DNA from: Thiovulum sp. ES
GTDB taxonomy: Bacteria > Campylobacterota > Campylobacteria > Campylobacterales > Thiovulaceae
Reading direction: 5' to 3'
Length of the DNA: 64,000 nt
Assembly: GCA_000276965.1 (NCBI GenBank)
Contig: AKKQ01000002.1
Span: 1,537 to 65,536 of the forward strand
Below are positions 915 through 64,000 of this stretch, piece by piece. The notes beneath the pieces are model-generated. The model did no database searches. It saw nothing but the letters and a program-made list of their open reading frames with translations, and was not told the DNA's origin. Position 1 is the stretch's first letter. Each line of letters starts with the position of its first letter. Position numbers and translations under genes: made by a program.

Positions 915-1799
915 TTGAGAAAGAGTTTTTTCTATTTTGAGAGAGTTCTTTTCTCTCCAAAAATTTATGATTTTCCAATTATATTTTTGCTTTTGCCATT
1001 TTCGATAATTTTTTTTGGTTTTACTTTTTTTAATGCATTGCGAAAACACCTCATCGCTAAAAAGTTTCCAATCAAAGTTATCGGAGTTGGAAATCTAGTT
1101 TTAGGTGGAACAGGAAAAACTCCAATAACAATCTCACTCGCAAAAAATGTCGATGAGGTCGCAATAGTTTTACGAGGATATGGGCGAAAAAGTCGCGGGA
1201 TAATTCATATTTCAGAATGGGGAAAAATTCTAGAAAATGTAGAAATAAGCGGAGATGAAGCTATGCTTTATGCAAAATCCCTCTCAAATGCTTCTGTAAT
1301 TGTTTCAGAAAATCGCGAAAATGGAATCAAAAAAGCGATTTCCATCGGTGCAAAAACTGTTTTTCTTGACGACTCGTATCGACAACACCAAATTTATAAA
1401 GATGTTGAATTTATTATAGAAAGTAATACGAAAAACTTTCTACCTTTTCCCGCAGGTGCATATCGAGAAAGATTGTGGTTCTTTAAAAAAAATATCCAAA
1501 TTCTAAAAGAGAATATAGATTTTGAACGAAAAGTCTCTTTTTCCCAAGACAAAAATCTAGTTTTAGTAACTGCAATTTCAAAACCAGAACGACTCTCCAA
1601 ATTTGTAGATGAAATTCCAAAATACTTTTTTCCCGATCATCACAATTTCACAAAAAATGAATTGGTACAAATTTTAGAAAAAAGTGGAAAAACAAAAATT
1701 CTTACAACTGAAAAAGATTTTGTAAAAATTGAGAAATTCGGTTTTGATGTGGAAATTTTGAAACTTGAAATTATTTGGAAAAGAGAAATAGAGATTTGA
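915..1799 (+). CDS. lpxK: Tetraacyldisaccharide 4'-kinase
   Basis: TTG start. The P-loop context VIGVGNLVLGGTGKTPITISLAK and the ~294 aa size are typical of LpxK. Confidence 0.85.
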   Translation: MRKSFFYFERVLFSPKIYDFPIIFLLLPFSIIFFGFTFFNALRKHLIAKKFPIKVIGVGNLVLGGTGKTPITISLAKNVDEVAIVLRGYGRKSRGIIHISEWGKILENVEISGDEAMLYAKSLSNASVIVSENRENGIKKAISIGAKTVFLDDSYRQHQIYKDVEFIIESNTKNFLPFPAGAYRERLWFFKKNIQILKENIDFERKVSFSQDKNLVLVTAISKPERLSKFVDEIPKYFFPDHHNFTKNELVQILEKSGKTKILTTEKDFVKIEKFGFDVEILKLEIIWKREIEI

Positions 1800-1801
1800 G
1801 T

Positions 1802-1821
1802 TTGTCGGAAAAACCCGACAA
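1802..1821. terminator. Hairpin between convergent lpxK and moeA (TTGTCGG-aaaaac-CCGACAA)
   Basis: A 7-bp G/C-containing stem in an AT-rich spacer, with A/T runs on both sides. It lies between two stop codons (1799 and 1825). Confidence 0.6.
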
Positions 1822-1824
1822 ATT

Positions 1825-3486: not shown

Positions 3487-4257
3487 TTAATTGAGAATAA
3501 CAACAAGGATAATAGAGCTAAGAAGATACCCGTCAGCTCTATCAAGAACTCCACCATGTCCAGGTAAGATATTTCCGCTATCTTTAATTCCACCAACTCT
3601 TTTGATATAACTTTCAAAAAGGTCTCCAAAAACTGAAGATATTGAAACAGCAAAAGCGATTAGGAATATTTGGGAATCTGAAAAATTTGGAAAAATCATT
3701 TCACCAACAAAAAATCCTCCAACTGTTCCGAAGAAAACTCCGCCAAAAACTCCCTCAAGTGTCTTTTTTGGTGAAGTGATTGAGAATTTTCGTTTTCCAA
3801 TTCCACGACCAACAAAATATGCCATTGTGTCGGTAAGAGCGACAGAGACAATTAAGAAAAGTAAAATATCATTTCCAAAACTTTTGTAAAGCTCAAAAAT
3901 GGCTAGAAATGGGAGAGTTGGATAAACAAGTAGATAAAAGTCCTCTTTATCAATCTGAGTAACAATAAATTTATCATTTTTAATTGTTGGTTTATATGCG
4001 AGAACTGAAAGAGAAACAACAAGCCCAACAAAGAAAATATCTGTTGGATTTTCTAAAAAAATAGAGAGAATTGAAAAGAGAACTCCAAAAGTATAGAAGT
4101 GAATATTTTTTCTGATTTTAAAAATTTCAATACTTTCAAAAATTGCGATGAGGTAAATAAGAGTTAAAAAAGTCCAAGTTAAAGGAAAAAAGTCTATCTC
4201 TCCAATAATAAAAATTAGAAGAACTAAAAATATTCCTGTGATAATTCTCTGTCTCAA
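3487..4257 (-). CDS. cdsA: Phosphatidate cytidylyltransferase (CDP-diglyceride synthase)
   Basis: Polytopic protein with the C-terminal signature SPKKTLEG...GDLFESYIKR...PGHGGVLDRADG. TTG start with AAGGA upstream. Confidence 0.85.
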   Translation of the reverse strand: MRQRIITGIFLVLLIFIIGEIDFFPLTWTFLTLIYLIAIFESIEIFKIRKNIHFYTFGVLFSILSIFLENPTDIFFVGLVVSLSVLAYKPTIKNDKFIVTQIDKEDFYLLVYPTLPFLAIFELYKSFGNDILLFLIVSVALTDTMAYFVGRGIGKRKFSITSPKKTLEGVFGGVFFGTVGGFFVGEMIFPNFSDSQIFLIAFAVSISSVFGDLFESYIKRVGGIKDSGNILPGHGGVLDRADGYLLSSIILVVILN

Positions 4258-4674: not shown

Positions 4675-5667
4675 TTGTTTATAGATAAAGTCTCAATAAA
4701 GCTCTCTTCAGGAAAAGGCGGTGCGGGTGCTGTTAGTTGGAGGAGAGAGAAATTTGTTCCACTTGGAGGCCCAGATGGTGGAGCTGGAGGTAGAGGTGGC
4801 GATGTTATTTTAAAAGTTGATAATAACAGCCACACTCTTGCAAATTTCCGTGGGGTTAAACACCTAAAAGCGGAAAATGGTAAAAACGGAATGCCGAAAA
4901 ATGCGACAGGAAGAAGTGGTCAAAATCTCATTGTCTCTATTCCTCCAGGAACTCAGGTTTTTGATTTGGAAACAGATGAGCTTCTATATGATTTGGTTGA
5001 AAATGGCGATGAGGTTCTTTTTTTAAAAGGCGGGAAGGGTGGTTTAGGAAATTCATCTTTTAAGAGTTCAAGAAATCAACAACCAAAAAAGTCTCAACCT
5101 GGAATACCAAGTGAGTCAAAAGAGGTTCGTCTTGAAATGAAACTTATTTCGGATATTGCACTTGTTGGATTTCCAAATACTGGAAAATCAACTCTTATTT
5201 CAACAATTTCAAATGCTCGTCCAGAAATTGCAAATTATGAATTCACAACACTAACACCAAAACTTGGAACAGTTGTAATTGATTATGACAAAAGTTTTGT
5301 AATAGCAGATATTCCTGGATTGATTGAGGGTGCGAGTGATGGAAAAGGGCTAGGAATTGAGTTCTTGACTCATATTGAACGGAGTGAATTTTTGCTTTTT
5401 ATGCTTGATATTTCAAACTATCGAGAGACTAAAGAGCAGTATGATAAATTACGAATTGAAATAGAAAGATTTTCGGAAACCCTTTCAAAGCGGGATTTTG
5501 CCATAGCTTTAACTAAAATTGATACTATTTCAGATGAGACTTTTAATATCGATGAATTAGTGAATCAATTTACAGAACTTGGAGCAAAATTTGTTTTACC
5601 TATCTCTTCAGTTTCTGGTAAAAATATTGATCAACTCAAATTTAAGCTTTGGGAAGCGATAAATTAA
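4675..5667 (+). CDS. obg: GTPase Obg/CgtA
   Basis: Canonical N-terminus MFIDKVSIKLSSGKGGAGAVSWRREKFVPLGGPDGGAGGRGGDV. G1 motif GFPNTGKST and DIPGLIEGA are present. The TTG start is fixed by the conserved N-terminus and an AGGAG RBS. Confidence 0.95.
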   Translation: MFIDKVSIKLSSGKGGAGAVSWRREKFVPLGGPDGGAGGRGGDVILKVDNNSHTLANFRGVKHLKAENGKNGMPKNATGRSGQNLIVSIPPGTQVFDLETDELLYDLVENGDEVLFLKGGKGGLGNSSFKSSRNQQPKKSQPGIPSESKEVRLEMKLISDIALVGFPNTGKSTLISTISNARPEIANYEFTTLTPKLGTVVIDYDKSFVIADIPGLIEGASDGKGLGIEFLTHIERSEFLLFMLDISNYRETKEQYDKLRIEIERFSETLSKRDFAIALTKIDTISDETFNIDELVNQFTELGAKFVLPISSVSGKNIDQLKFKLWEAIN

Positions 5668-8003: not shown

Positions 8004-8582
8004 TTGAATTACACAAAAGAGGAGATTTTAAATCTCCAAAACGATCCTGTTTTTCTTCACGAACTACAAAGAATTGAGAAAGAGGGTGTCGAAAAAAGCG
8101 ACCTCATCGCCCTTTACGATGTTCTTGATTCTGTTTTACTTTTTGAGCGAGAAGAGAGTGAAAGAGTAAATAAGATTTATGAAGAGATTTTAAAAATTGC
8201 GTTTCAAAAACTGCATGATAAATTACAAAACCGAGATATTTTTTCACTCGATGAGGTGAGCGAACATCTTTCTCTCCGTGCTTTATATGAATTTGGAATT
8301 GATAATTTTGGTAAAAAGAACTTTGAAGAAGCAAAAGAAGTTTTTTTAGCTCTCTCAATGCTTTCTGATAATCCAGAATTTCGTGGTGCAATGCAAATTC
8401 ACCTTGTTGGAGTTTTAAAAAAAATGGTTTTTGAAGAATTCGTTGATGAATACATCGATTTGGAAAGCAAAAATGACAGCTATTTTTTACTCTATTTTAA
8501 AGACAGTGCAAACGGATTTTTACACGAAAACAGAAATCTTATTTTAAATGCTGTGCGGGAAATTGAAAGTAGAAAAAGTTGA
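8004..8582 (+). CDS. Hypothetical helical protein (192 aa)
   Basis: The ORF is in an operon-like position, overlapping the murC start by 4 nt (TTGA). It carries two copies of the CGATGAGGT word. I recognise no family. Confidence 0.4.
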   Translation: MNYTKEEILNLQNDPVFLHELQRIEKEGVEKSDLIALYDVLDSVLLFEREESERVNKIYEEILKIAFQKLHDKLQNRDIFSLDEVSEHLSLRALYEFGIDNFGKKNFEEAKEVFLALSMLSDNPEFRGAMQIHLVGVLKKMVFEEFVDEYIDLESKNDSYFLLYFKDSANGFLHENRNLILNAVREIESRKS

Positions 8583-9871
8583 GAATACACTTTATCGGAA
8601 TTGGCGGAGTCGGAATCTCTGGTCTCGCCAAATACTTGCATTTTCTTGGACACAAAATTTCTGGTTCTGATGTAATTACAAGTAAAATGAGTCGAGATGT
8701 TGCAGGTTTGGGAATTCCTGTCTCTATTCCGCATTCTGGCGACCTCATCGATTCGGAAATAGAATTGATTGTTCATTCCGCTGTAATCAAACCATCAAAT
8801 CCTGAAATTATTCGAGGAAAAGAACTCCAAATCAAAATTCTCTCTCGTGCTGAAGCTTTAAAATTTATTTTAAAAGATAAAAAGGTTTTTTCTATTTGCG
8901 GTGCGCATGGAAAAAGCACAACTGGGGCGATGCTTTCAGTTTTGATTGAAGAGAACTCTATTATTGGTGCTTACAATAAAACTTATGGCTCAAATGTGAA
9001 ATATTGCGAGGGAGAAAATCTTGTTTTTGAAGCTGATGAAAGCGATGGTAGTTTTTTAAACTCAAATCCATTTTACAGCATCGTAACAAATTGCGAACCT
9101 GAACACATGGAATTTTACAACTACGATTATGGCACTTTCTATAAATCGTATCATCAATTTTTAGAGAAATCAAAAAAACGAGTTATAAATGCCGAAGACC
9201 CATTTATGAAAGATTTAGATTTAGAAGCAATTCGACTTTATCCGTCAAAAGATATAAAAATTTTGCGGTCTTTTCTTTTTGAAAATGAACCTTTTATAGA
9301 GTTTTCATTAAAAGAGTTCGGGACTTTTTCAGTTTTTGGTTTTGGCGAACATATTGCAATTGATGCTTCACTTTCGATTTTGACGGCACTCGATTTCGGT
9401 ATTTCTGTCGATGAGGTTCGGGAAAGATTAAAAAATTATCGGGGAATTGAAAAGCGATTTGATATTTTGCAAAACAGAGATAATTTTATTTTGATTGACG
9501 ATTATGGACATCATCCAACTGAAATTGAGGCAACTCTCGGTTCGGCAATTCAATTTGCAAAAATGCGGGGAATTGAAAATATCACAGCAATTTGGCAACC
9601 ACATAAATATAGCCGAACACTTGATAATATTGAGCATTTCCAAAGATGTTTTAACGGTGTTTCAAAGTTGATTATTTTGCCAGTTTGGAAAGCGGGAGAA
9701 GAGGAAGTTGAAATTGATTTTAAAACTCTTTTTAGCAGATACAATTTGGAATTTACGGAAAAATTGCAAACGGAAAAAGGCTGTGTTCGATTATCAAATG
9801 GAGATAAATTAGAAAGCGGTCTAATTATCGGATTTGGTGCTGGAGATATAACTTACCAGTTACGAAAATAG
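8579..9871 (+). CDS. murC: UDP-N-acetylmuramate--L-alanine ligase
   Basis: N-terminus MRIHFIGIGGVGISGLAKYL, GAHGKSTT P-loop, and the Mur ligase C-terminal region DDYGHHPTEI. Confidence 0.9.
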   Translation: MRIHFIGIGGVGISGLAKYLHFLGHKISGSDVITSKMSRDVAGLGIPVSIPHSGDLIDSEIELIVHSAVIKPSNPEIIRGKELQIKILSRAEALKFILKDKKVFSICGAHGKSTTGAMLSVLIEENSIIGAYNKTYGSNVKYCEGENLVFEADESDGSFLNSNPFYSIVTNCEPEHMEFYNYDYGTFYKSYHQFLEKSKKRVINAEDPFMKDLDLEAIRLYPSKDIKILRSFLFENEPFIEFSLKEFGTFSVFGFGEHIAIDASLSILTALDFGISVDEVRERLKNYRGIEKRFDILQNRDNFILIDDYGHHPTEIEATLGSAIQFAKMRGIENITAIWQPHKYSRTLDNIEHFQRCFNGVSKLIILPVWKAGEEEVEIDFKTLFSRYNLEFTEKLQTEKGCVRLSNGDKLESGLIIGFGAGDITYQLRK

Positions 9872-9901: not shown

Positions 9902-12136
9902 TTAACCTTTTGTTGTATGTTTAAATACACCGTCAAAGTCTTCAGGTGGAACTTCAATGTAATGCTCACATCTTTCAATATACATGTTATAAACATTCAC
10001 ATTTGTTTTATCTTCCCAAGAATTTACATCTTTGAAAACTTCAAGAGCTTCAGAAAATTTTGCATTTTTGTAAAGATCGATTGCATGATGATATTGATCT
10101 AATTCTTCTTGTAATCTTTCTCGAGAAACACCAAACATATACTTACCTTTTCCATCTAAACCACCTTCAAAATCGTGAATTTGCCAAATTTCAATAGGTT
10201 CGCTTTTTCCTTTAACAGTAACTAAATCAAGGAAACGATAAATATATTTATTATCATCTAATCGTTCTTTTGTGAAGTTTGAAATATTACATTTTGAGTT
10301 ATAGTATTTACAAAGAGATTCAAGTCTTGCACCGAGGTTAATTGGGTCTCCAATTGCCGTATAGTCGCTTCGTCCAGATGAACCCATTTCACCTACAACA
10401 GCTTCACCAGTATTTAGACCAATACCAATTTCAATTGGATCTTTCCCCATTCCTGCTGCCATTTTACAAGTCGCTATAAATCGAGGGTCTTGTTTGATTT
10501 TTTCATTAATCCAATCACAAGCATGAAGTTGTTCTAATGTTGCAACAACGGCTTTATCAACATGATTTTCTACATCAACTGGAGCATTCCAATAAGCCAT
10601 GATTGCATCACCAATAAATTTATCAACAGTTCCTTCATATTTCATAATGATTTCAGTCATTGGATCCATGTATTCATTTAGGAACTCAATCAGTGTTTTT
10701 GCATCTGGCATTGACTCAGAAATATTTGTAAAGTTACGGACATCAGAGAACATAACCGTAATTTCTCTACTATGCCCAACCATAATATTTCCATCAGGAT
10801 TATTAATGAGGTCTTCCATAACAGCAGGTGAAACTTTTGCTGCAAATTTTCCCTTAATCAATTTCTTTTGATTCTGCTCAAGGAAAAGATTTATAATCAT
10901 CAATACAACAGTTGTTACACCAATTGCAATAAATGGGAACATTGCACTAATCATAATTCCTTCTTCAAACATTTGTCTATAAATCTCATAGGCTGTTCCA
11001 AGAACTATAAAAGGCAAAATAATAAGAACATAATTCGCAGGAACTAGAATAAATAGAGTGCTTAAAACTAGAATTAGTACAAACATTGCAATAACATCAA
11101 AACCTTCAACCCAACTTGGCTTATAAAGAAAATCACCTGCCATTAAGTTGTCAATTGCAGTTGCATGAGTCTCAACTCCAGGATAGACACTATCGAGAGG
11201 AGTGATCCGAATATCAAGAAGTCCCGCTGCTGAAGTACCAACTAAACAAATTGCACCTTGCATTTTTTCTTTGTCAAAATCTCCATTGTAAATATCTAAT
11301 ATTGAGATATATTCAAAAGTTCTTCCTGGACCTCGGAAGTTTAAAGTGAGTCTTCCATATCTATCTGTTGGAATAAACTTTTCACCAACTGTTAAACCAG
11401 CGATTCCGTTTACATTGTAATGAATTCCAACCTCTTCAGCTTGATTTACAAGTCTATACATCTCAAGAGCAAGAGATGAGAAAATTTCATCATCATACTT
11501 TATAACAAGTGGAACAGTTCGGATAACTCCAGATTGATCTGGTGTATTGTTGAAAAATCCACTTGTGTAAGAGTTCTCTTGAATTGTTGGAATATTTAAA
11601 ATAATATCTTGAGAAGTGATCATAAAATCATTACTTTCATCAACACCTTCCTCGATAAAAGTTGCAGGAATCATTGGAACATCTTTTAACTGAAACTCTT
11701 TCTCATTTAAATTAAATGTGTAGCCGAGAACAGTTGGAGTTTGTGCGACAACATTTCCAAAGACCTCATCGTAATTTGCAAAGTTTCCATCGATACCAAA
11801 CTTTTCGGCAAATTTATGCGGAGAAGTTCGGTCTTCTTCTGGAAACATAACATCGAGTCCGACAACAGCAATTCCTGCTTCAGTAAGTTTTTGAAGAACT
11901 TCGGCAAGAATAGTTCGTTCCCAAGGATATTGCCCAAAATGGTCTAAACTCTGCTCATCAATGTCAATAATGTAAATCGGGTTTTTTGGATCAACCGTTC
12001 CCCGATATGTGAAGAATAAATCTTTAACTTTGTTTTCAAATGGTGTGTGATATTGCGGAAAAAGGATGTAAGTCCCAATCACAAGAACACTAATCCCAAA
12101 TGTAAAAGCGATAATACGAAGAAGTTTTCCTAGCAT
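9902..12136 (-). CDS. CHASE2-domain membrane sensor fused to a class III adenylate/guanylate cyclase
   Basis: N-terminal TM, a ~330-aa extracytoplasmic region, then three TM helices. The cyclase core follows: VMFSDVRNFT, VDKFIGDAIMAYW, GLNTGEAVVGEMGS, DYTAIGDPINLGARLES. The Lys in DKFIGD suggests ATP specificity. There is a ~110-aa helical C-terminal tail. Confidence 0.85.
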   Translation of the reverse strand: MLGKLLRIIAFTFGISVLVIGTYILFPQYHTPFENKVKDLFFTYRGTVDPKNPIYIIDIDEQSLDHFGQYPWERTILAEVLQKLTEAGIAVVGLDVMFPEEDRTSPHKFAEKFGIDGNFANYDEVFGNVVAQTPTVLGYTFNLNEKEFQLKDVPMIPATFIEEGVDESNDFMITSQDIILNIPTIQENSYTSGFFNNTPDQSGVIRTVPLVIKYDDEIFSSLALEMYRLVNQAEEVGIHYNVNGIAGLTVGEKFIPTDRYGRLTLNFRGPGRTFEYISILDIYNGDFDKEKMQGAICLVGTSAAGLLDIRITPLDSVYPGVETHATAIDNLMAGDFLYKPSWVEGFDVIAMFVLILVLSTLFILVPANYVLIILPFIVLGTAYEIYRQMFEEGIMISAMFPFIAIGVTTVVLMIINLFLEQNQKKLIKGKFAAKVSPAVMEDLINNPDGNIMVGHSREITVMFSDVRNFTNISESMPDAKTLIEFLNEYMDPMTEIIMKYEGTVDKFIGDAIMAYWNAPVDVENHVDKAVVATLEQLHACDWINEKIKQDPRFIATCKMAAGMGKDPIEIGIGLNTGEAVVGEMGSSGRSDYTAIGDPINLGARLESLCKYYNSKCNISNFTKERLDDNKYIYRFLDLVTVKGKSEPIEIWQIHDFEGGLDGKGKYMFGVSRERLQEELDQYHHAIDLYKNAKFSEALEVFKDVNSWEDKTNVNVYNMYIERCEHYIEVPPEDFDGVFKHTTKG

Positions 12137-12206: not shown

Positions 12207-12677
12207 TTGGGAAAAAGAGTTTTAGGCATTGACCCTGGAACAATAAAAAGTGGATTTGGAATTGTTGAGTTTCAAACTGGGAAATATATTCCAATTGACG
12301 GCGGGTTAATTCGTTTCTCATCAACTGACTTACAAATAATTTTAGTTGAAATGGCAAATGAACTTGACTCCATTTTAGAAAAAAACAGTATTGATGAGGT
12401 CGCAATTGAAACAGTTTTTTTTGCTAAAAATCCAAAATCTATTATTAAACTATCTCAATTTCGTGGTGCTTTACTCCTCTATTTTCTGCAAAAAGGTTTC
12501 AAAATTTGGGAATATTCTCCGCTTGAAATCAAGCAATCTGTAACAGGAAATGGAAAAGCAACAAAAGAGCAAGTAAATTTTATGGTAAAAAAACTTTTGG
12601 GAATTCATGGAGAAATGAAGCCCTTTGATATTAGTGATTCTTTTGCGGTCGCAATTACACAAATTCAGAGAGGTTGA
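12207..12677 (+). CDS. ruvC: Holliday junction resolvase RuvC
   Basis: N-terminus (M)GKRVLGIDPGTIKSGFGIVE and a C-terminal DISDSFAVAI acidic motif. TTG start with GAAAGGA RBS. Confidence 0.9.
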   Translation: MGKRVLGIDPGTIKSGFGIVEFQTGKYIPIDGGLIRFSSTDLQIILVEMANELDSILEKNSIDEVAIETVFFAKNPKSIIKLSQFRGALLLYFLQKGFKIWEYSPLEIKQSVTGNGKATKEQVNFMVKKLLGIHGEMKPFDISDSFAVAITQIQRG

Positions 12678-39896: not shown

Positions 39897-39905
39897 GGAG
39901 AAAAG

Positions 39906-40760: not shown

Positions 40761-40763
40761 GAA

Positions 40764-41601: not shown

Positions 41602-41606
41602 TAATT

Positions 41607-41753: not shown

Positions 41754-41948
41754 AAACATCGTGAAAGAAAAGGTTTAAACTCTCTTTCATTTGACACTCT
41801 TTTTAAACGACAAGATTTTTGGGAGTTTGTAGTTTCAAGAAATGCTCAAATGCTTTCAAAAATAAATTCCGCTGATTCAGCGGATTTAAAATCAGAACCA
41901 ATTCAATCCGACTACTCCATGATTTTGTGCCTTACATCACCGCCATAA
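41673..41948 (+). pseudogene. Truncated, diverged paralogue of the KilA-N-like gene (91 codons)
   Basis: The first 27 aa are identical or near-identical to 40834. The next ~60 aa are clearly related but diverged (FWEFVVSRNAQ vs IWEFIIARNTQ). It ends before the GTW segment. Confidence 0.45.
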
Positions 41949-51417: not shown

Positions 51418-51978
51418 TCAAATTTCATTATCAATAATTTGACAAATTGTGTGTCCAAAAAGAATATGCATCTCCTGAATTCTTGGTGTATTTTCTGATG
51501 GAACGATGAGGTTCAAATCACAAAAAGAGTTCATTTTTCCGCCACCTTTTCCAGAGAATCCAAGAGTTTTACACCCAATTTCTCTACCAATTTTCAAGGC
51601 ATTTATCACATTTCCAGAATTTCCACTTGTGCTAATTCCAAGAAGCAAATCACCTTTTAGTGCCAAAGCTTCAACTTGCCGAGAAAAAACTTTTTCATAT
51701 CCGTAATCATTTCCAATTGCAGTCAATGCACTTGTGTCGGTTGTTAAAGCAATTGCGGGAAGTCCTCGCCTCTCTTTTTTGTAGCGACCAGTCAATTCTG
51801 CGGAAATATGTTGAGCATCTCCTGCACTACCGCCATTTCCAAAAAGAACTATTTTACCGCCATTTTGTAGAGTTTCTAAAACCATTTGAGAAGCTTTTGT
51901 AATCTCTGAACTCATTTCTAAAACTCTCTTCATTGTTTCTAAATGTGAATTTAATTCACTTTTTACAGTTTCCAACAT
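51418..51978 (-). CDS. gmhA: D-sedoheptulose-7-phosphate isomerase (SIS domain)
   Basis: Carries [20 protein letters not shown] and [15 protein letters not shown]. The start is placed at an internal ATG (51978), but 52038 is also possible. Confidence 0.8.
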
Positions 51979-54949: not shown

Positions 54950-55966
54950 ATGGCTATATATTTAGATTTTGAGGAAAAACTCAAAAAAATTCAAGATTCT
55001 GTTCTTTCGGCAAAACTCAAAAACGACGAACATGCCGTTCAAATTTTAGAAGAAGAGCAGAATGAAATGGTGGAAAAAGTTTTTTCCTCTCTTTCGCCAT
55101 ATCAGAAACTACAACTTGCAAGACATCCAAATCGTCCATATTCACTTGATTACATTCGTTTGATTATGACAAACGAGTATGAAATTCACGGCGACCGACA
55201 TTTTGCAGATGACAAGTCAATTGTCGCATTTATGGGATATATTGGCGAACAGAAATTTATGGTGATTGGTGAGCAAAAAGGTCGTGGGACAAAAAATAAG
55301 ATTTTCCGAAATTTTGGAATGCCACAACCTGAAGGCTATCGAAAAGCTTTAAGAGTTGCAAAACTTGCTGAAAAATTCAACATTCCAATTCTCTTTCTTG
55401 TGGATACTCCAGGGGCTTACCCAGGTTTAGGAGCTGAAGAGAGAAATCAGAGCGAAGCAATTGCACGAAATCTACTTGAATTTAGCAAATTGAAAGTGCC
55501 GACAATTTCCGTAGTTATTGGTGAAGGTGGAAGTGGTGGAGCATTGGCAATTGGTGTTGCCGACACTCTTGCGATGATGAGATATTCCGTATTTTCGGTG
55601 ATTTCACCAGAGGGTTGTGCTGCGATATTATGGAAAGATCCTGCAATGGTTGAAACAGCTACGGAAGCTCTCAAAATCACAGCAGAAGACCTCATCGAAC
55701 TTAAACTTGTTGATAAGATTGTTGAAGAACCACTTATCGGTGCACACCGAGAACGAGAAAAAACAGCTGAAATTTTAAAAGATTTTGTGATTTCTGAACA
55801 CAAACGACTTTCTGCATTTTCTCTTGATGAACTTTTGGAAAATCGATACAACAGAATTGCATCACTTGGTGCTTTTGAAGAGAGAGAAATCGAACGAGTT
55901 TCAGAAATTGCTGAAACAGAAAAGGAGAATGATGAACAAAACGGAACTAGCTCAGAGACGGAGTGA
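54950..55966 (+). CDS. accA: Acetyl-CoA carboxylase carboxyltransferase alpha subunit
   Basis: Carries [33 protein letters not shown], and [12 protein letters not shown]. There is a short acidic C-terminal extension. Confidence 0.9.
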
Positions 55967-56540
55967 TTTATATTCGCTTTTTTCTCGACTTCTCCTACAA
56001 GAAGTTGATTTAGAGACTCTAAAATATCTTAAAAATTCGGATTCTATTTCTGATATTTTTCCAAATATTGCGGAGTGGAAACCTTGGTTTGAAGAGAGTG
56101 ATTTAAATCTTTTAAATCAATATTTAAATGTTGATTTTACAGATATTTCGCTACTTCACCTTGTGCCATATGAAACTTTTTATACTCGAGATGATCAAAT
56201 GGTGGAAACTGGCGGGGCAAATCCCGTTACAGATTTTTATCACCGTTTTGGATTTAAAGTTGAGTTTGATGAAGCTCGGGTTGTCTCTTCGGATCACATC
56301 GGAGTCGAACTTGAATTTATGTCAAAACTTGTAGCTTCGGAATTAGAAGCACTGAAAAATGGCGATGAGGTCGCACTAAATTCAATTGTGGAAGCACAAA
56401 AAGAGTTTTTCAAAAAACATCTTGTAAATTGGGTTAGCTTATATTTGATAAATGTGAAATATGAAGCTCGAACTCCTTTTTATTACGATTTGGCGGAAAG
56501 CACACTCGCTTTTATTCTTGAAGATGGAGAGAATTTATGA
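55929..56540 (+). CDS. TorD/DmsD-family redox-enzyme maturation chaperone
   Basis: About 200 aa, helical. [14 protein letters not shown] and a pattern like FF.KHL..W resemble the TorD family. The ATG follows AGGAG and overlaps the accA 3' end. Confidence 0.6.
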
Positions 56541-57019
56541 TAGCTTCGGCATTTTTCGCAGCGGGTTGTTTTTGGGGAGTTGAATTCCTATTTCAAGGTG
56601 TTTCTGGTGTCAAAAGTGCGGAAAGCGGATACATGGGCGGAACTCAAATCGCCCCAAGCTACGAAGATGTAATTTACAGAAACACTGGACATTTGGAAAC
56701 TGTAAAAGTTGATTACAATCCTGAAGAGGTTTCATACGAGGAATTGGTGAAATTTTTCTTTGAAATTCATGATTTCACTCAAACAAACGGGCAAGGTCCA
56801 GACATCGGGTTTCAGTATCTTTCGGGAATTTTCTATCAAAATGACGAAGAGAAAAAAATCACGGAAAATGTGATTTCAACTTTAGAAAATCGTGGCTTTA
56901 AAGTTGCGACTAAATTGATTGACGGAAAAATTTTCTATCGAGCTGAAGATTATCACCAAAATTACTACAACAAAACTGGAAAAACCCCATATTGCCATAG
57001 CCATCGTAAAATTTTTTAA
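56537..57019 (+). CDS. msrA: Peptide-methionine (S)-S-oxide reductase
   Basis: FAAGCFWGVEFLFQ active-site motif and a ~160 aa MsrA core. ATGA overlap with the upstream gene. Confidence 0.9.
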   Translation: MIASAFFAAGCFWGVEFLFQGVSGVKSAESGYMGGTQIAPSYEDVIYRNTGHLETVKVDYNPEEVSYEELVKFFFEIHDFTQTNGQGPDIGFQYLSGIFYQNDEEKKITENVISTLENRGFKVATKLIDGKIFYRAEDYHQNYYNKTGKTPYCHSHRKIF

Positions 57020-59349
57020 TGCAAATTTTTACAAACAAAAGAGCCATTCGGAATTACACGAAACGGCTCGGCGATGGTGAAATCGGCGAACTTATCACAA
57101 TTCAAGATTTTATTTCAAAAGTTATTTATCGCGAAGATTATTCAAAAATCAATAGTTTGGAACGGGAAATTATTTTCAATTCCGTTGTTAAAAAAACAAA
57201 AAAAGATATTTTCAATATTGATACAAATATTTTCAATTTCCTGAGTTACTCCCGACATTTTTTCTCATTTTTTGAAGAGTTGGCACTTGAAAAAGTTGAA
57301 ATTGAGAGTCTCCAAAAAGCAGATTATTATGAAGATTATAAGAAACATATTGAGATTTTAAAAGAGATTTACACAAAATTTGAAAGGGAATTAGACCAAA
57401 AAAAGTATTTGGATTCAATTTTTTTGCCAAAAAATTACAAGATAAATTTTGAATATTTGGAAAGAGTTTCAAAAATAAAATTTCATTTTGAGGGACGACT
57501 CTCAAAATTTTATGTTGAAATTTTTAATAAAATTTCTGAAAAAATACCTTTTGAAATTGAATTTACAAAAAGTCGTTTCAACTCAAAAATCTCGGAACAG
57601 CTAGAAACAGATTTTGAAAATGAGTTTTTATACAGATTTGATTTGAGCAAAAAAGAGATTTTGTCAAAAGAAAAAGTTGGAATGAGTCGAGATATTTCGC
57701 TTTATAAATTTAAAAACAGACTTTCGCAAATTGGATTTGTCAAAGAGAAAATTTGGTTTGCCGTTGAGAAATTGGGAATTGAGCCTGAAAAAATCGGAGT
57801 GATTTTGCTTGATGAAAGATTTGCCCCTACTTTAAAAGCTTTTGACAAAATTGGAAATCTGAATTTCTCAATGGGAATTTCAATAAAAGAATCGGAAATT
57901 TATAAAAAACTTTTTGCAATTTATAAGTTTTTGGAAAGTAAATATTCTGAAGAGAATAGAAAGCGAATTTCTAAATTTTTCCAGAGTGAAGAAGAGATTT
58001 CATTTTTTTCTGAAAATTGGAATCGACAAATAGAAATTGGAAGTTTCACCGAAAAAATCACAGAAATTATTCTTTCTGACAAAACTACACCAAAAGCTAT
58101 TTTGCCGAGAATTGCGAAAATTCTAGCTATGTTTCAAACGGAAATTTTCCAGAAAGTTGAATTGAGAATACTTTTTAGGCTCTTTTTTGAAGAGTTTGAG
58201 ACTTTGACAATTGATGATGTACGAGGCGGAAAAATCACAGTTCAAGGACTTCTTGAAACTCGGGGTGCGGAATATGATTTTTTGATTGTTCTAGATTTTA
58301 ACGATGAGGTCTTTCCAAAACGAGAGGAAAAAGACTTTTTTATAAATTCTGAAATTCGGAAAAGTGTCGGTTTGCCACTAATTGAAGATCGTGAGGGTTT
58401 GCAAAAAATATATTTTGAACGAATTTTGCAAAAAGCAAAGCATATTTCGATTTCCTATTTGCAATCTGAAACAACAAAAATATCCCGATTTTCTCACGAT
58501 TTCCAATTTAAAGAGATTCCACAAAATGAGAGATATGAGAAGCACCTCATCGCACAAATTTTAGAAACTCAAAATGAGAAATTTCATTGGAATAGTGAGA
58601 GTGTGCAAATCTTAAAAGATTTCTCTTTTGCAAAAAAACCGCTTTCAAACTATTCTATGCGGACTTTTTTAGAGTGCCGACGACGATATTATTTTAAATA
58701 TCTGCTTTCAATAAATGGTGAAAATGAGAAAAATATCAATTTTGAAATCGGAAATCTTCTCCACAATGTTTTGAAAAAACTCTATTCACAAAATCAGACT
58801 TTCCAAAATTTAGAAAATCTACGGAATGAATTCCAAAAAATTATCGCAAACGAGAATTTTGAACAGACTTATAAAATATTTTGGACTCAAAAACTAGAGA
58901 ATTTTTTTAGAAATGAGATAAGTCGTTTTCAAAATGGCATAAAAGTTTTAGAAGTTGAAAAATCACTTTCTGCAACTTATCGCGGTTTGGAGTTTCGCGG
59001 AATTATTGACCGAATTGATATTTCTGAAAACGGTGAATTACAAATTATTGATTACAAAACAACCGACCCATCAAAATTTAGAAATAGTGAAACTGGGAAA
59101 AGTGAAAATGATTTTCAGCTCGTCATTTATTATATTTTGTTAAAAGAGAATGGCTACAAAATTGATTTTGAGAATTTGTATTATTACAATTTGACAAGCG
59201 GAAAAATGATACAAAACAGTAGAACACTGGAAGATTTTCACAAAGAATTAGACAAATTTATTGAATTAGAAAAAGAGAAAATAGATTTTTTTGAGAGTGA
59301 AAAGTGTAATGTTTTTTGTGAATATAAGACGATTTGCAACAGAGATTAG
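57019..59349 (+). CDS. AddB-like PD-(D/E)XK nuclease subunit with Fe-S cysteine staple
   Basis: C-terminal RecB-type nuclease motif GIIDRIDISENGELQIIDYKT. It is flanked by CRRRYYFKY upstream and CNVFCEYKTIC at the C-terminus (the 1+3 Cys arrangement of AddB). There is no helicase Walker A. No addA gene is adjacent. Confidence 0.7.
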   Translation: MQIFTNKRAIRNYTKRLGDGEIGELITIQDFISKVIYREDYSKINSLEREIIFNSVVKKTKKDIFNIDTNIFNFLSYSRHFFSFFEELALEKVEIESLQKADYYEDYKKHIEILKEIYTKFERELDQKKYLDSIFLPKNYKINFEYLERVSKIKFHFEGRLSKFYVEIFNKISEKIPFEIEFTKSRFNSKISEQLETDFENEFLYRFDLSKKEILSKEKVGMSRDISLYKFKNRLSQIGFVKEKIWFAVEKLGIEPEKIGVILLDERFAPTLKAFDKIGNLNFSMGISIKESEIYKKLFAIYKFLESKYSEENRKRISKFFQSEEEISFFSENWNRQIEIGSFTEKITEIILSDKTTPKAILPRIAKILAMFQTEIFQKVELRILFRLFFEEFETLTIDDVRGGKITVQGLLETRGAEYDFLIVLDFNDEVFPKREEKDFFINSEIRKSVGLPLIEDREGLQKIYFERILQKAKHISISYLQSETTKISRFSHDFQFKEIPQNERYEKHLIAQILETQNEKFHWNSESVQILKDFSFAKKPLSNYSMRTFLECRRRYYFKYLLSINGENEKNINFEIGNLLHNVLKKLYSQNQTFQNLENLRNEFQKIIANENFEQTYKIFWTQKLENFFRNEISRFQNGIKVLEVEKSLSATYRGLEFRGIIDRIDISENGELQIIDYKTTDPSKFRNSETGKSENDFQLVIYYILLKENGYKIDFENLYYYNLTSGKMIQNSRTLEDFHKELDKFIELEKEKIDFFESEKCNVFCEYKTICNRD

Positions 59350-59373: not shown

Positions 59374-60732
59374 CTATTGAGAAATAAGGTCTTTTCGCGG
59401 ATATACGAAAATTGCTTCTCGAGTAACTTTAATCTCTTCAGGTTTATCAAGAGCATAAGCATTGATTTTTACATGAATTGTTACATCTTTTCGTGGGTCT
59501 TCAGCGAGAACCTCATCGGTATAAAGAACAACAACTTTTTTAGTTTTATCACCAGCTCTGATTTTAAAATCTTTTTTTGGTCGGAAAATCTTGATTTTCG
59601 GATTATCAACTGTAAAGTAGTATTTATGGTCTTCACTGTCAGTATTTTGGAATAGGAAAACATAACCGTTTGTAACTCTTTTTCCACCATCTGGAGCATC
59701 TTTAATCGAATAGAGCCGAGTCTCTTTATTGATATTAAGTAGCATGTGTTCTTTTTCACTTCCCATTTTCAGGAGGGCAAAAAGCATAATTCCGATAATT
59801 ACTAAATATCCGATTGTTTTTGGTCTGAAATATTTTGTTTTTCCATCTTTTTGATCAATTTCTCGAACACTTGACCAATTTACAAGAGTAGGTTTCCCAA
59901 GTTTTCCCATAACAGTTGTACAAGCATCAACACACTCAAGACAGTTAATACACTCAAGTTGAAGACCTTTTCGGATATCGATGTGAGTTGGACAAACTGT
60001 TACACATTTTTCACAAGTTGTACATTCTGAACCCTCTGGTAAATCTTTTGCTTTTTCAATGACTTTTTCTTTCTCATCGTTATAAATATCTCCACCTCGG
60101 CTTGTATCATAAATAGCCATAATTGTGTCGTCATCATAAAGAACAGATTGAACTCGGCTGTAAGGGCAGATATATGCACAAAAATTCTCTTTTAACCAAA
60201 TCACATCATAAATTAGGAAAAGTGCAATTGAAGCCCAAAAAATCATTAAAGTTGTGTGTTCAAGAGGATTTTGAATATATTGGAAGAAAGTTTCAGGTGG
60301 AACAAAATACCAAAGGAAATCTGCACCTGCAAGAATTGCGAGAGCCGACCAAAGAAGAATTGCAATAAATTTCTTAAAGGCATTTCCTTCTGGTTCTTTC
60401 TGCTTGTTTGAAATCTTTTTGCGAATTCCTAAAATTTTTGTTTCGATGAGGTCTCGATAAACAACACGGAAAATTGTTTGCGGACAAGCCCAACCACAAA
60501 AAACTCGACCACCCATAACTGTCATCAAGAAAATTCCAAGGAAGAGCATAATAAGTAGGAATGGCATAAGATAGAGTTCTTGCATATCAAACTTTGTGAA
60601 AAGAAGATGTAATTGCTTGTTATCAAAATTGAAAAGAAAGAAGTGGTTTCCATCAACTGTAATAAAAGGCAGACTTACTGAAATTGCAGTTATAACGATA
60701 TAAAACAGATACCGTTTTGAGGCATAACTCAT
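59374..60732 (-). CDS. ccoG: cbb3 oxidase accessory protein CcoG/FixG (4Fe-4S ferredoxin, membrane)
   Basis: CGWACPQT, CAYICPY, CTTCEKCVTVCP and CINCLECVDAC clusters with N-terminal TM helices. Confidence 0.9.
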   Translation of the reverse strand: MSYASKRYLFYIVITAISVSLPFITVDGNHFFLFNFDNKQLHLLFTKFDMQELYLMPFLLIMLFLGIFLMTVMGGRVFCGWACPQTIFRVVYRDLIETKILGIRKKISNKQKEPEGNAFKKFIAILLWSALAILAGADFLWYFVPPETFFQYIQNPLEHTTLMIFWASIALFLIYDVIWLKENFCAYICPYSRVQSVLYDDDTIMAIYDTSRGGDIYNDEKEKVIEKAKDLPEGSECTTCEKCVTVCPTHIDIRKGLQLECINCLECVDACTTVMGKLGKPTLVNWSSVREIDQKDGKTKYFRPKTIGYLVIIGIMLFALLKMGSEKEHMLLNINKETRLYSIKDAPDGGKRVTNGYVFLFQNTDSEDHKYYFTVDNPKIKIFRPKKDFKIRAGDKTKKVVVLYTDEVLAEDPRKDVTIHVKINAYALDKPEEIKVTREAIFVYPRKDLISQ

Positions 60733-60906
60733 ATTTTTACCTTATGTATTAGTATTTAAGTTTATTTCGGATTATATTGTTTTTCTCTTTAGACATACCT
60801 AAAGATTATCTTTTTAATAAAATTACCTAATTTAGAGCTAAGGTTTGATTTTTTTTATTTTTAATATTATTGTAAAATATTTGAAATTTTCTGACGAGGG
60901 TAAATA

Positions 60907-61617
60907 GTGAATAAAGGCGAATTAATTTACGAGGGAAAAGCAAAAAGAATTTTCTCTGTTGAAAACGATTCTACACATCTTGTTGCTGAATTTAAAGATG
61001 ATTTGACTGCATTTAATGCACAAAAAAAATCTTCAGAAGAGGGAAAGGGTGCTTTAAATCTCAAAATTTCTACTCAACTTTTTAATCTTTTAACAGAAAA
61101 AGGGATTAAAACTCACTTTGTAGAAAATATTTCTGACCGAGATATGCTTGTTAAAAAAGTGGATATTATCCTTATCGAAGTTGTTGTCCGAAATATTGCG
61201 ACTGGTTCGCTAACTCGACGACTTGGAATTGAAGATGGAAAAAAACTCCCTTTTACACTTATTGAGTTTTACTACAAAAATGATGACATGAACGACCCAA
61301 TTATTACGGATGAACATGCGATTATTATGGAACTTGCAAAGAGTCAAGAAGAGTTAGCGATTTTAAAAAGTGAAGCTAAAAAAGTGAATGACATTCTTAT
61401 TCCATTTTTTGCAGAGCGAAACTTAAATCTTGTTGATTTTAAACTTGAGTTTGGGCGACTACCAAATGGTGAAATTATTCTTGCCGATGAACTTTCTCCT
61501 GATAATTGTCGTTTCTGGGATATGGAAACTGGTGAGAAACTTGATAAAGATCGTTTCCGAGAGGGAATTGGCGGAATTAAGGTTGCTTACGAAGAAGTTC
61601 TTAAAAGAATTATGTAG
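60907..61617 (+). CDS. purC: Phosphoribosylaminoimidazole-succinocarboxamide (SAICAR) synthase
   Basis: [22 protein letters not shown] and [14 protein letters not shown] motifs. GTG start. Confidence 0.9.
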
Positions 61618-62113
61618 TGAATTTACAAAATTTCAACAAAAGTCTCCTCTCTGAGGAGCTTATAAAAGAGATTGAGAACTCAAACCTTTTAAACTTAAGA
61701 AGTTCCGCGATTGAAAATCTGGATTTAAAAAGTAATTTTTTAAGCAGAATAGATTTGAAAAAGACAAAATCACTAAAGACAATTTCGTTAAATTGTCCTG
61801 AACTTGAAGTCTTCTTGATTTAAATATTCGAGGTGCAAAAGATTTAAAAGTTTTAAATTTAAAGACAAAGAGATTAGAACATATTGAGTTAGAAACAGAG
61901 CAAATACCGCTTTTTTTACAAAAAATTGAGAAATTGGAAAATTTAAAAGGAATAAATCATATTTATAACGATAAAAATTTGCCACTTTCTGAATTTATTT
62001 CAAGTTTTGAAAAAGAGCAAATTAATAGACACAAAGATAATTGCTCTTGCTCAAGTTGTAAAAGTGAAAAGAAAGTTTTCATCGAAGGTTTGGAATTTAA
62101 ACTAAAAATCTAA
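61617..62113 (+). pseudogene. Leucine-rich-repeat-like protein gene interrupted by a -1 frameshift near 61815
   Basis: Frame 1 (61617-61823) ends ...SLNCPELEVFLI*. The overlapping frame is open from 61808 and continues LDLNIRGAKDLKVLNLKTKRLEHIELE... to the stop at 62111-62113. LxxLxL periodicity continues across the junction. Confidence 0.45.
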
Positions 62114-64000
62114 ATTTCAAAACCAACAAATGTAATATCATCAGTTTGAAAATTTTCACCTTTCCAATCATTAAAAACTTCTAAAAGTCTATCTTTTTGA
62201 TTAGAGAAATCTTTTTTATAAATTTTTACAACTTCATTTGCACACCGTTTTTTTCCAAAAGGAAAATCATTTTCGCCACCAATTTGATCTTTGAATCCAT
62301 CACTTGAAATATAAAATTTTCGACCTTTGTGAGCTTTTATACAATGCTCTTTAAAATTTTTCTCTCTTTCAACTCGATTTCTATTTTCAATTGAGATTCT
62401 ATCTCCAGATATTTTATTAAAAAATCCATCTTCATCGACATAGCAAAGACCAATATTTGCACCAGAAAAGAGAACTCGACCATGTCTCTTATTGATAACA
62501 ACAACTGCACCATCAAAGCCGATGAGGTTCTGCTGAGTTCCCTGAACAAGATTTCTGAAGTTTTCTCGGAACATATGAAGAACGATTGAGGGGCTGATAC
62601 TAACAACTCTCTCAAATCTTTTGATAAGTGCATTTTCAGTTGCTTTTATTGACATTGTGATTAAAGCTCCTGGAATTCCATGTCCAATCGCATCAACGAG
62701 GATAAAAACAGCTTCATCACGAAACTCCTGAAAAAAGTATATATCACCACCAACTCTATCTCGAGGTTGCCAAATAACAAAATAGTCTTTAAAGAAACTT
62801 TTTAATTTTTTCTCTTTTGGAAGAAGAGATTCTTGCAGAAAAAGTGCATGTTGGAGAGAATCATCAATAATTTTGTTTTTCTCAATAATTTTATCTTGAG
62901 CATCATTTAGTTCATCAACAACAACATTGAAAAAATTTATCAAAGATTTCATAGTTTTTAATGAAAAGGAGGTTTCTTCAAAAGATGGTTGTTTGTGAGA
63001 AGTCTTTTTATTAATATTTTCTGAAAGTGCGACATAAGTCATTGTTTGATTCAAAAGAGAGTTTCTATTTTTAACATGATAAAACTCGCCGTATGTGAAA
63101 AAACCTGAAGTTGGAGCAATATTTTTAAACGGTGAAATTTCAAACTCAATCTGTTTTGACAATAAACGGAAACGAGCAATACATGAATATATAAAGACAG
63201 CTTCAATATTTTGGTTCTCTAATTTTGAGGAACTTAATTTTGAATCTTCTAAAATCAGCCCGATGTTTCCGACACCAAAACGAACTTTTTCGCCAACTTT
63301 AAAATTTCCGCCATAGAAAAGAGATTCGTCATCATTGATTTTCAGCATTGCTCTTGCGATAAGAGTTCCCCGTTTTTTACGAATAAGTGGAAAAGCGAGA
63401 CCTGTGTCAAGAAGAGACTCTTCACCAAAATATTTTTTATATACATCAATTGCTTTAACTCTATTTAATTCTAAAAGAGTGTTGCCTTTTGCTTTTGTAA
63501 CCGTGAATTCTTTTCCGATTGGTTGCCAATTAAAATTGTAATCATTTCGGATTTCTAAAACATCACTTTCAAATGCAATAGCAACAATACCACGAAGAGT
63601 AAAAATAGAACCAAAAGAGACCGCTATTCCAGTTGATTTTCCATTATTTCCACCAATTCCACCAGCAATAACAACATTCCGATTTGCCGAAGTAACTCCA
63701 TCGAGAAAATCCTCAACATTAAAAACAGGTGATGAATCTGTAAAAATTATCACAAGTTTTGTTTTTGGGGTAAAGAGGGTTTCGGCGACTTTTTGTCCGC
63801 ATGAGAAACTATCAAGAGTTCCTATAAAAAGCTCACCTTTTAGAGTTGTTGCAACAAAAGAGGAGATTGAGACAACAATTTTAGAAGTCGAAACTTCAGT
63901 ATCTGAAATTTCTCCAGCTGTTGTTGTTCCAATAATTTTTGCATTTGGCAACTCTTCTTCAATAATTGCTGAACTTTTCATAAGTCCAACTGTTCCTTGC
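62110..64000 (-). CDS. FIST-domain sensor fused to a PP2C/SpoIIE phosphatase (5' end beyond the window)
   Basis: The frame stays open to nt 64000. The N-terminal two thirds have the FIST N/C pattern (IIGTTTAGEIS, VVIAGGIGG, FYGGNF, GFFTYGEF). The C-terminal PP2C motifs are VGGDIYF, VDAIGHG, SSDGFKDQ and TDDITFVG. Confidence 0.8.
   Translation of the reverse strand, partial: QGTVGLMKSSAIIEEELPNAKIIGTTTAGEISDTEVSTSKIVVSISSFVATTLKGELFIGTLDSFSCGQKVAETLFTPKTKLVIIFTDSSPVFNVEDFLDGVTSANRNVVIAGGIGGNNGKSTGIAVSFGSIFTLRGIVAIAFESDVLEIRNDYNFNWQPIGKEFTVTKAKGNTLLELNRVKAIDVYKKYFGEESLLDTGLAFPLIRKKRGTLIARAMLKINDDESLFYGGNFKVGEKVRFGVGNIGLILEDSKLSSSKLENQNIEAVFIYSCIARFRLLSKQIEFEISPFKNIAPTSGFFTYGEFYHVKNRNSLLNQTMTYVALSENINKKTSHKQPSFEETSFSLKTMKSLINFFNVVVDELNDAQDKIIEKNKIIDDSLQHALFLQESLLPKEKKLKSFFKDYFVIWQPRDRVGGDIYFFQEFRDEAVFILVDAIGHGIPGALITMSIKATENALIKRFERVVSISPSIVLHMFRENFRNLVQGTQQNLIGFDGAVVVINKRHGRVLFSGANIGLCYVDEDGFFNKISGDRISIENRNRVEREKNFKEHCIKAHKGRKFYISSDGFKDQIGGENDFPFGKKRCANEVVKIYKKDFSNQKDRLLEVFNDWKGENFQTDDITFVGFEI

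Follow-up and report, generated by a model that had tools for sequence, protein, structure and literature searches.

For decades, sequence words that mark a bacterium's own DNA for uptake have been known from two proteobacterial families only. The Neisseriaceae have the DNA uptake sequence (DUS; core GCCGTCTGAA, with the 12-mer AT-DUS), whose receptor is the minor pilin ComP, and the Pasteurellaceae have the uptake signal sequence (USS), which occurs in a Hin-type (AAGTGCGGT) and an Apl-type (ACAAGCGGT) form. Such sequences are still treated as a two-family phenomenon (bioRxiv 2025.10.24.684340). Here we describe a non-palindromic octamer, GATGAGGT (reverse complement ACCTCATC), that recurs 50 times in a 64-kb stretch of the genome of Thiovulum sp. 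ES, a member of the Campylobacterota (contig AKKQ01000002.1; the whole stretch is called the window below). The PyrG protein encoded in the window is 100% identical to EJF07788.1 from that organism. Based on the window and about 130 kb of loci from its relatives, we propose that the octamer serves the Thiovulum clade as a DNA uptake signal and has spread through biased uptake and recombination, a reading that we consider fairly probable. A preliminary description of the window had already suggested an uptake-type signal, with a Chi-like site as the alternative.

The octamer is present on both strands (28 copies on the plus and 22 on the minus strand), amounting to about one copy per 1.3 kb or 0.78 per kb. 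Dinucleotide-preserving shuffles of the window produce 1.14 ± 1.03 copies with a maximum of 4, and the excess grows with word length, from 44-fold for the 8-mer to, relative to base composition, about 240-fold for the 9-mer (44 copies against 0.18 expected) and about 880-fold for the 10-mer CGATGAGGTC (26 copies against 0.03-0.04 expected). For each k from 7 through 12, the top over-represented k-mer of the window is this same word. In an oriented alignment of the 50 copies, information is confined to the invariant octamer and to its two neighboring bases, -1 (C in 44) and +9 (C in 29); 26 copies have both, 11 of these continue with G, and the preferred form in the window is CGATGAGGTC, i.e. 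the core with one C on each side. No conservation was detected beyond -1 and +9 in this alignment, indicating a bare word and not a segment of some longer repeat or mobile element. A repeat of the repetitive extragenic palindrome or miniature inverted-repeat transposable element type was likewise ruled out, as there is no information beyond these two flanking positions, every copy is intragenic and an Rfam scan of the window returned no match. The word is also sharply delimited: the 27 one-mismatch variants of CGATGAGGT total eight occurrences, six of which differ at the flanking C, whereas perfect copies number 44. The counts, coordinates and flanking preferences given in the preliminary description were all reproduced, and the excess that it noted persists under composition, dinucleotide-shuffle and codon-aware expectations alike. 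The three near-misses that it listed are also present, at 10805, 33503 and 45687, the second having been misplaced to 33513.

All 50 copies are located within open reading frames (ORFs), as initially claimed, and Pfam assignments confirm that the host genes are functionally unrelated (lpxK, moeA, obg, murC, ruvC, sbcCD, tsf, radA, trpD, bamA, pyrG, accA, ccoG, an addB-like nuclease gene, genes for signaling proteins, and others). The 26 copies in the sense orientation read GAT-GAG-GTN (Asp-Glu-Val, DEV) without exception, and none uses the +1 sense frame, which would hold a TGA stop. The 24 antisense copies read xAC-CTC-ATC (x-L-I) in 17 cases, CCT-CAT-CG (P-H-R) in four and ACC-TCA-TCG (T-S-S) in three. 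Both this breakdown by frame and the spelling of 26 of the 27 DEV tripeptides of the window proteins with exactly this word, the exception being GATGAAGTT at 14787, match what had been noted earlier.

Such a uniform sense reading raises the prospect of an artefact of composition, codon usage or the Asp-Glu-Val peptide itself, or else of the relic of a small mobile element; indeed, 26 of the copies spell DEV, and Asp is preferentially encoded by GAT in the window. The remaining codons are minority choices: GAG makes up 31% of Glu, GTC 11% of Val, CTC 10% of Leu and ATC 16% of Ile codons. When synonymous codons are shuffled within genes with the proteins held fixed, 7.5 ± 2.3 copies (maximum 16) are obtained, and shuffling of codon order gives 1.75, as against the 50 observed; a codon-shuffled null, as proposed in the preliminary description, is thereby clearly exceeded in the window. 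Together with the spelling of DEV by rare codons, these values show that selection or drive targets the double-stranded DNA word and not a peptide or mRNA signal. The proteome itself is distorted, with 27 DEV against 5.9 expected and four PHR against 0.3 expected. Further, 24 copies are antisense, the word stands in frame inside conserved housekeeping genes, its flanks are unconserved and AT-rich outgroups show no excess (see below). The codon nulls, the outgroups and the flanks exclude the codon or peptide artefact and the mobile-element relic, and the probability we attach to this explanation is negligible. A Shine-Dalgarno-like role for the GAGGT within the word was also dropped, because half of the copies are antisense. 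As a separate observation, several tripeptides unrelated to the word, namely LQN (18 times), QNG, QNL, VMG and ENR, are also 4-6-fold enriched across the window and may reflect repeated motifs of its signaling proteins (SpoIIE, PAS, GGDEF and FIST).

The phyletic distribution of the word was assessed on contigs of PyrG homologs ranked by PyrG identity. The word recurs at 0.69-0.99 copies per kb on four Joint Genome Institute contigs sharing 93% identity with the window (L081-84), and at 0.39 (L085; PyrG 86% identical), 0.74 (L088; 79%), 0.92 (L089; 74%) and 0.60 (L090; 74%) copies per kb on more distant ones. The corresponding locus (L086) of the closed genome of Ca. Thiovulum stygium (CP091137.1) contains 13 copies in 21.6 kb, or 0.60 per kb, against 0.25 copies expected. 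Thus, each of the seven loci of a monophyletic Thiovulum clade is hyper-abundant in the core, at about 0.4-0.9 per kb. Neither the sister lineages L091 (PyrG 70-71% identical) and L001 nor the Sulfuricurvum, Sulfurovum, Helicobacter and Campylobacter loci examined, AT-rich ones included, contain it. In an outgroup panel of 80 loci from a PyrG search of genome contigs, among the matches listed, the best at 69%, the word is missing from 74. The lack of an excess in other AT-rich Campylobacterota means that a compositional artefact, against which the preliminary description had asked for such a comparison, does not account for it. In a neighbor-joining tree of PyrG, the loci with the word form a monophyletic group whose sister group is without it. 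The flanking positions differ between lineages, with C at -1 being strong in the window and L089 and weak in T. stygium, and with +9 being C in the window and T or G in other lineages; this variation resembles the 'dialects' of the Neisseria DUS (PMC3630211).

The most telling result was obtained by aligning pyrG codon by codon for the clade and outgroups. In a variable loop of the protein, L081 and L085 have ACC-TCA-TC (T-S-S), while L086, L089 and L090 have, one codon over and on the opposite strand, GAT-GAG-GT (D-E-V); the outgroups show unrelated residues at that loop. A second variable position is D-E-V in the window, L081 and T. stygium. In the variable loops the word thus arises through amino-acid replacement, whereas at the conserved Y-L-I and T-M-R, some lineages make the word by synonymous choice alone (TAC-CTC-ATC; ACG-ATG-AGG-T). 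It thus appears from the alignment that a DNA word has been imposed on this protein in several frames, and the comparison of orthologs suggested by the preliminary description accordingly reveals the word built in different frames and orientations across the clade. The same pattern is known from uptake sequences, which reshape variable peptide positions and use synonymous freedom at conserved ones (PMC2817400).

Additional architectural features emerge in the relatives. In T. stygium (L086, 20160-20184), GATGAGGT is followed after 9 nt by ACCTCATC, forming an inverted pair between convergent genes, and in L090 (15207-15225) ACCTCATC-aaa-GATGAGGT, followed by the T-rich, terminator-like ATTTTATT, is again found between convergent genes. 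A metagenome scan for GATGAGGT-N3-20-ACCTCATC identified two Thiovulum-like contigs among the matches listed, L141 (1206-1233) and L168 (2892-2913), in both of which inverted pairs lying in AT-rich spacers between convergent genes form hairpins; the listed matches are dominated by chance occurrences on unrelated, mostly GC-rich contigs. No inverted pair or hairpin was found in the 64-kb window. The convergent-gene hairpins of L086 and L090 resemble the DUS and USS pairs that occupy terminators (bioRxiv 2025.10.24.684340).

Sites are also gained and lost between close relatives, by 2-4 clustered substitutions; one such gain, from ACTTAATTG to ACCTCATCG, separates two contigs that are 97.9% identical. 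These clustered changes, like the all-or-none sharpness of the word with no halo of one-mismatch forms, would also fit an enzyme of exact recognition, i.e. the word could be the target of a sequence-specific DNA modification or of a repair or conversion system, with near-cognates being converted or the modified word marking self DNA. Comparable cases are the cyanobacterial HIP1 element (GCGATCGC) with its methyltransferases and the CCWGG excess driven by very short patch repair in E. coli. However, the word is non-palindromic and, with 8-10 bp, longer than typical methyltransferase sites, no methyltransferase in the window is tied to it and, to our knowledge, no repair system enriches an asymmetric octamer. 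That HIP1 has been linked to transformation (bioRxiv 2024.09.10.611283) and that the discrimination of DNA in C. jejuni, a member of the same phylum, relies on methylation and not on a rare word (PMC8468864) lend this explanation some further appeal; on balance we hold it to be improbable. A variant in which the word might serve as a methyl-tag for uptake, as with CtsM and RAATTY in C. jejuni, is a sub-case of an uptake signal and not a true rival.

With respect to orientation, the copies are balanced by strand (28:22) and relative to gene direction (26:24), in agreement with the preliminary description, and five more distant relatives' loci sum to 31:32 by strand, which by its reasoning points to an uptake-type signal. 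Third-position GC skew in the window is weakly positive for genes of both strands, suggesting that the window lies on a single replichore; taken as such, its 28:22 ratio rejects a 75% skew (P = 0.003). Treating each locus as one replichore of unknown direction, a test of the loci and not of a whole replichore map, a replichore skew of 75% is disfavored by 10^5.2 (log10 likelihood ratio -5.2), one of 70% by 10^3 and one of 65% by 10^1.5. Co-orientation with replication of the type seen in Chi or in FtsK orienting polar sequences (KOPS) was thus not found in the window and the relatives' loci, and this neutrality speaks against any signal that is polar with respect to replication, Chi and KOPS included. 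A Chi-like hotspot read by the AddAB helicase-nuclease would otherwise be attractive, given that an octamer is Chi-sized, that Campylobacterota use AddAB and that the window itself encodes an AddB-like protein of the PD-(D/E)XK fold (57019-59349); moreover, we know of no Chi described for the phylum. Yet the combined ratios disfavor skews of at least 0.75 by 10^5-fold and of at least 0.70 by about 10^3-fold, and inverted hairpin pairs would make no sense for Chi. Known Chi sites are only few-fold over expectation, as against the 44- to about 880-fold of the Thiovulum word. A Chi-like function therefore appears very unlikely.

Neutral orientation, together with a roughly Poisson spacing (coefficient of variation 0.86 against 0.98 under random placement) and an exact core shared across the clade, would equally be compatible with the binding site of an abundant, Thiovulum-specific chromosome-organizing or nucleoid protein, e.g. 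one serving the many genome copies of a giant cell. The sites of known organizers, such as parS, matS and those of Noc and SlmA, number in the tens, as against a projected thousand or more for the word, and abundant nucleoid proteins bind degenerate motifs. Selection would, moreover, have to act on each of more than 1000 sites strongly enough to outweigh amino-acid changes in unrelated proteins, and the turnover of sites between close relatives fits drive better than per-site function. We consider such a protein quite improbable as the cause of the word, more so than a modification or repair enzyme.

An uptake signal would require machinery to read it. No uptake genes were found in the 64-kb window, which encodes the recombination and repair genes radA, ruvC, sbcCD and the above addB-like gene. 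In a comparative study of Thiovulum, every strain is reported to have type IV pilus genes and many of the surface filaments are argued to be pili, and the annotation tables of that study list ctsD/pilQ, two COG1555/ComEA proteins, dprA, comEC and ctsW/comFC, some of the entries being for strain ES (PMC9938260); the competence genes that the preliminary description had proposed to look for are hence annotated in Thiovulum genomes. C. jejuni has the same type of uptake machinery and tells self DNA apart by methylated RAATTY (PMC8468864), providing a precedent in the phylum for sequence-based discrimination at uptake, though of a different kind. We infer biased DNA uptake as the selective agent, and with it a state of competence and a sequence-specific receptor, which may reside on a surface uptake apparatus, i.e. 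a type IV pilus or a Campylobacter-type Cts pseudopilus with the CtsD secretin. The receptor would bind double-stranded fragments bearing the word, which would then be drawn into the periplasm with ComEA, translocated as single strands through ComEC and recombined with the aid of DprA and RecA. Word-bearing alleles, being imported more often, would displace word-less alleles in the population by molecular drive, and the word would build up to about one per kb in both orientations wherever coding constraint permits. In the word-bearing relative L089, a 140-aa pseudopilin (N_methyl/T2SSG) and a neighboring 162-aa ORF are encoded beside pyrG (8315-9266); these are possible parts of an uptake pseudopilus and hence possible candidate receptors.

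The case for an uptake signal thus rests on the conjunction of an exact, asymmetric 8-10-mer at about one per kb, neutral orientation, confinement to tolerated frames, clade dialects and occasional inverted pairs. DNA uptake sequences are the only established class that we know of with this set of properties. The excess, the balanced orientation, the conservation in the clade, the pyrG pattern and the annotated competence genes together favor the uptake-type interpretation of the preliminary description over its Chi-like alternative, as far as genome comparison can tell.

Several observations weigh against this interpretation. The 24 one-mismatch variants of the octamer total 22 occurrences against about 32 expected by composition, whereas in H. 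influenzae USS with a single mismatch are common; absence of such an excess means that an uptake signal would need an unusually all-or-none receptor sensing all eight positions, though it may instead point to an exact-site enzyme. In a 16.5-kb alignment of the window with its 93% identical relatives, the latter keep 12-13 of the 15 window sites covered, against about 57% expected from position-specific divergence, a borderline result (P = 0.05 and 0.015). Raw divergence for the word is 3.3% against 7.1%, mostly a matter of codon-position make-up, and third codon positions within the word, 4 of 36 of which diverge, are not significantly slower than those outside (15.9%; P = 0.3) in comparison with one relative at 93% identity; the slower drift of the word than of nearby synonymous sites, which the preliminary description had suggested looking for, was accordingly not significant at this distance. 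Its suggestion that motif-free stretches mark recent import also fails to find support in the spacing: the largest gap is at least 5.0 kb in 62% of random placements, and depletion in the islands of the window, a small sample of accessory DNA, was not detected. None of the copies in the window is intergenic, whereas about half of the known DUS and USS lie in terminators (bioRxiv 2025.10.24.684340); this absence is in itself not significant, since non-coding DNA makes up only about 5% of the window and would be expected to hold about 2.5 copies. Finally, Thiovulum is an uncultured organism.

The individual copies, as defined by exact word search and assignment to ORFs and reading frames, are distributed as follows (plus strand unless marked minus; flanking bases are given in the orientation of the word). 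Of those read in sense as DEV, the ones with C on both sides lie in lpxK (1152-1159), moeA (2804-2811, minus), a CHASE2 cyclase gene (11763-11770, minus), a DUF6055 gene (14730-14737), sbcC (21715-21722), a SpoIIE-like gene (34850-34857, minus), trpD (36989-36996), a fumarase gene (38380-38387), bamA (42942-42949), an epimerase gene (44927-44934), a PRTase_2/TRSP gene (46378-46385, minus), pyrG (47544-47551, minus; the word is at the same position in L081-84 and Ca. T. stygium), a BatD-like gene (51112-51119), a TorD-like chaperone gene (56364-56371) and the addB-like PD-(D/E)XK nuclease gene (58303-58310). C precedes and T follows in obg (5008-5015), murC (9410-9417), bamA (42462-42469) and ccoG (59510-59517, minus); C and G flank the copy in a gene for an unknown 192-aa protein (8250-8257), C and A that in a gene for an unknown 434-aa protein (49025-49032, minus), T and C those in ruvC (12393-12400) and rsmG (26427-26434, minus), T on both sides those in tsf (24590-24597) and radA (26321-26328), and A on both sides that in a gene for an RR-SpoIIE phosphatase (17002-17009).

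Antisense copies of the x-L-I class with C on both sides are situated in moeA (2329-2336, DLIV), the gene for the 192-aa protein (8101-8108, minus, DLIA), murC (8742-8749, minus, DLID), sbcC (20615-20622, minus, DLIG), flgA (36088-36095, DLID), bamA (43330-43337, minus, DLIV), the PRTase_2/TRSP gene (46746-46753, DLIV), accA (55689-55696, minus, DLIE) and ccoG (60445-60452, DLIE). The same class is flanked by T and C in the RR-SpoIIE phosphatase gene (16775-16782, minus, DLII), by C and G in lpxK (1048-1055, minus, HLIA), bamA (42628-42635, minus, HLIG) and the addB-like gene (58544-58551, minus, HLIA), by C and A in cdsA (4147-4154, YLIA) and an ankyrin-repeat gene (34208-34215, YLIE), and by C and T in a SIS_2 gene (51505-51512, NLIV) and a FIST-SpoIIE gene (62521-62528, NLIG). 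The TSS copies are in the DUF6055 gene (15108-15115, minus) and sbcD (19526-19533, minus), both with C on either side, and in radA (25541-25548, minus; C and G). Those encoding PHR lie in a gene for an unknown 470-aa protein (28889-28896, APHR; C and G), folE (33900-33907, TPHR; C and G), trpD (36823-36830, minus, LPHR; C and A) and a PemK/MazF toxin gene (39740-39747, minus, EPHR; C and T).

This toxin gene belongs to an accessory stretch (39313-41948) that combines an RHH antitoxin and the PemK/MazF toxin with a DnaJ-domain protein and two ORFs without a Pfam match; synteny breaks at about 42069, and the 93% identical relatives L081 and L082 have other genes at this position. A second region of distinct character (28314-33396) is a minus-strand cluster of low GC content (25-28%) that adjoins folE, encodes the 470-aa protein of unknown function, a SAM (S-adenosylmethionine) methyltransferase, an aminotransferase, a xylose-isomerase-like TIM barrel protein and a radical-SAM/SPASM enzyme, and looks like a system for sugar or metabolite modification. 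It contains one copy of the word, and its depletion is not significant. Directly upstream of pyrG in Ca. T. stygium (L086, 7426-9783) are genes for an iceA-like endonuclease, an HTH protein and a D12-class adenine methyltransferase, an arrangement that recurs next to pyrG on L087, a short Logan contig. The restriction-modification stretch of L086, 2.4 kb in length, has no copy of the word.

Other lineages of the phylum show words of their own. A Helicobacteraceae metagenome-assembled genome (MAG) has 15 copies of GCGAATCT in 11.4 kb against 0.8 expected (L014, 1852-11183), another Helicobacteraceae MAG 14 copies of GCGCGATT in 17.3 kb against 2.1 expected (L015, 930-16070), and Helicobacter sp. 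16-1353 ten copies of GCGGAATC(T) in 21.6 kb against 0.4 expected (L019, 1908-15914). All three are sharp, non-palindromic octamers, suggesting that lineage-specific hyper-abundant octamers may be more widespread in Campylobacterota. In L014, nine copies of GCGAATCT in a row are on the same strand, so some such octamers could be polar and Chi-like rather than uptake-like. The broader proposition, that the Thiovulum word is the first uptake signal outside Neisseriaceae and Pasteurellaceae, is read by a Cts/type IV pilus via a receptor unrelated to ComP and is one case of a repeated habit in Campylobacterota to which these three octamers would also belong, is tentative and in our estimate rather doubtful as a whole.

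Were the word to function in uptake, word-based self-recognition in transformation would have evolved repeatedly, an independent system would become available for testing molecular drive against selection, and gene exchange would be indicated in an uncultured, very large, pilus-covered sulfur bacterium. In practical terms, donor DNA supplied with the word could open Thiovulum and its relatives to genetic work. The word also offers an inexpensive means of placing metagenomic contigs in the clade and of detecting foreign DNA. A full-text literature search covering the word itself, Thiovulum, and uptake sequences in Campylobacterota or Epsilonproteobacteria, a search that did not extend to the original 2012 ES genome paper (PMC3502928), returned no prior report.

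Among the known systems, Chi (RecBCD/AddAB) and the polar KOPS and SpoIIIE recognition sequences (SRS) are likewise short over-represented chromosomal words, of 5-8 nt, but are strongly co-oriented with replication and modestly over-represented, whereas the Thiovulum word is neutral and in 44-fold (8-mer) to about 880-fold (10-mer) excess. HIP1 comes closer in being a hyper-abundant exact octamer within genes that is conserved at high taxonomic rank and linked to transformation, yet it is palindromic and a methyltransferase target, and the Thiovulum word is asymmetric. The CtsM/RAATTY system of C. jejuni shares the phylum and, as far as annotation tells for Thiovulum, the Cts machinery related to type II secretion systems and type IV pili, ComEA and ComEC. 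Its known function is self-DNA recognition at the first uptake step (PMC8468864, PMC10046745), which for the Thiovulum word would hold by analogy; the C. jejuni tag is, however, a methylated short degenerate palindrome, common by composition, and not a hyper-abundant rare 8-10-mer. The USS of Pasteurellaceae has a 9-mer-class core at about one per 1.2 kb, mostly inside genes and in few reading frames, and it too alters peptides where conservation is poor and draws on synonymous codons where conservation is high (PMC2817400). It differs in its AT-rich flanking tracts and one-mismatch enrichment, both lacking in the Thiovulum word, and is unrelated in sequence and lineage. The DUS of Neisseriaceae is similarly a short exact word at about one per kb, in hundreds-fold excess and in both orientations, conserved within a clade of family rank in which flanks or 'dialects' vary (PMC3630211), forming hairpins from intergenic inverted pairs, as the Thiovulum word does in some relatives of the window, and associated with type IV pili. 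The Thiovulum word is unrelated to it in sequence and belongs to the phylum Campylobacterota, and its 50 intragenic copies in the window stand against the DUS, about half of which are in terminators (bioRxiv 2025.10.24.684340). Thus, the word departs from the known families in three respects, being purely intragenic in the ES window, having no AT-rich flanks and showing no one-mismatch excess, and in its abundance and neutral orientation parallels them closely enough that it probably constitutes a third, independent signal for the uptake of own DNA, in a different phylum.

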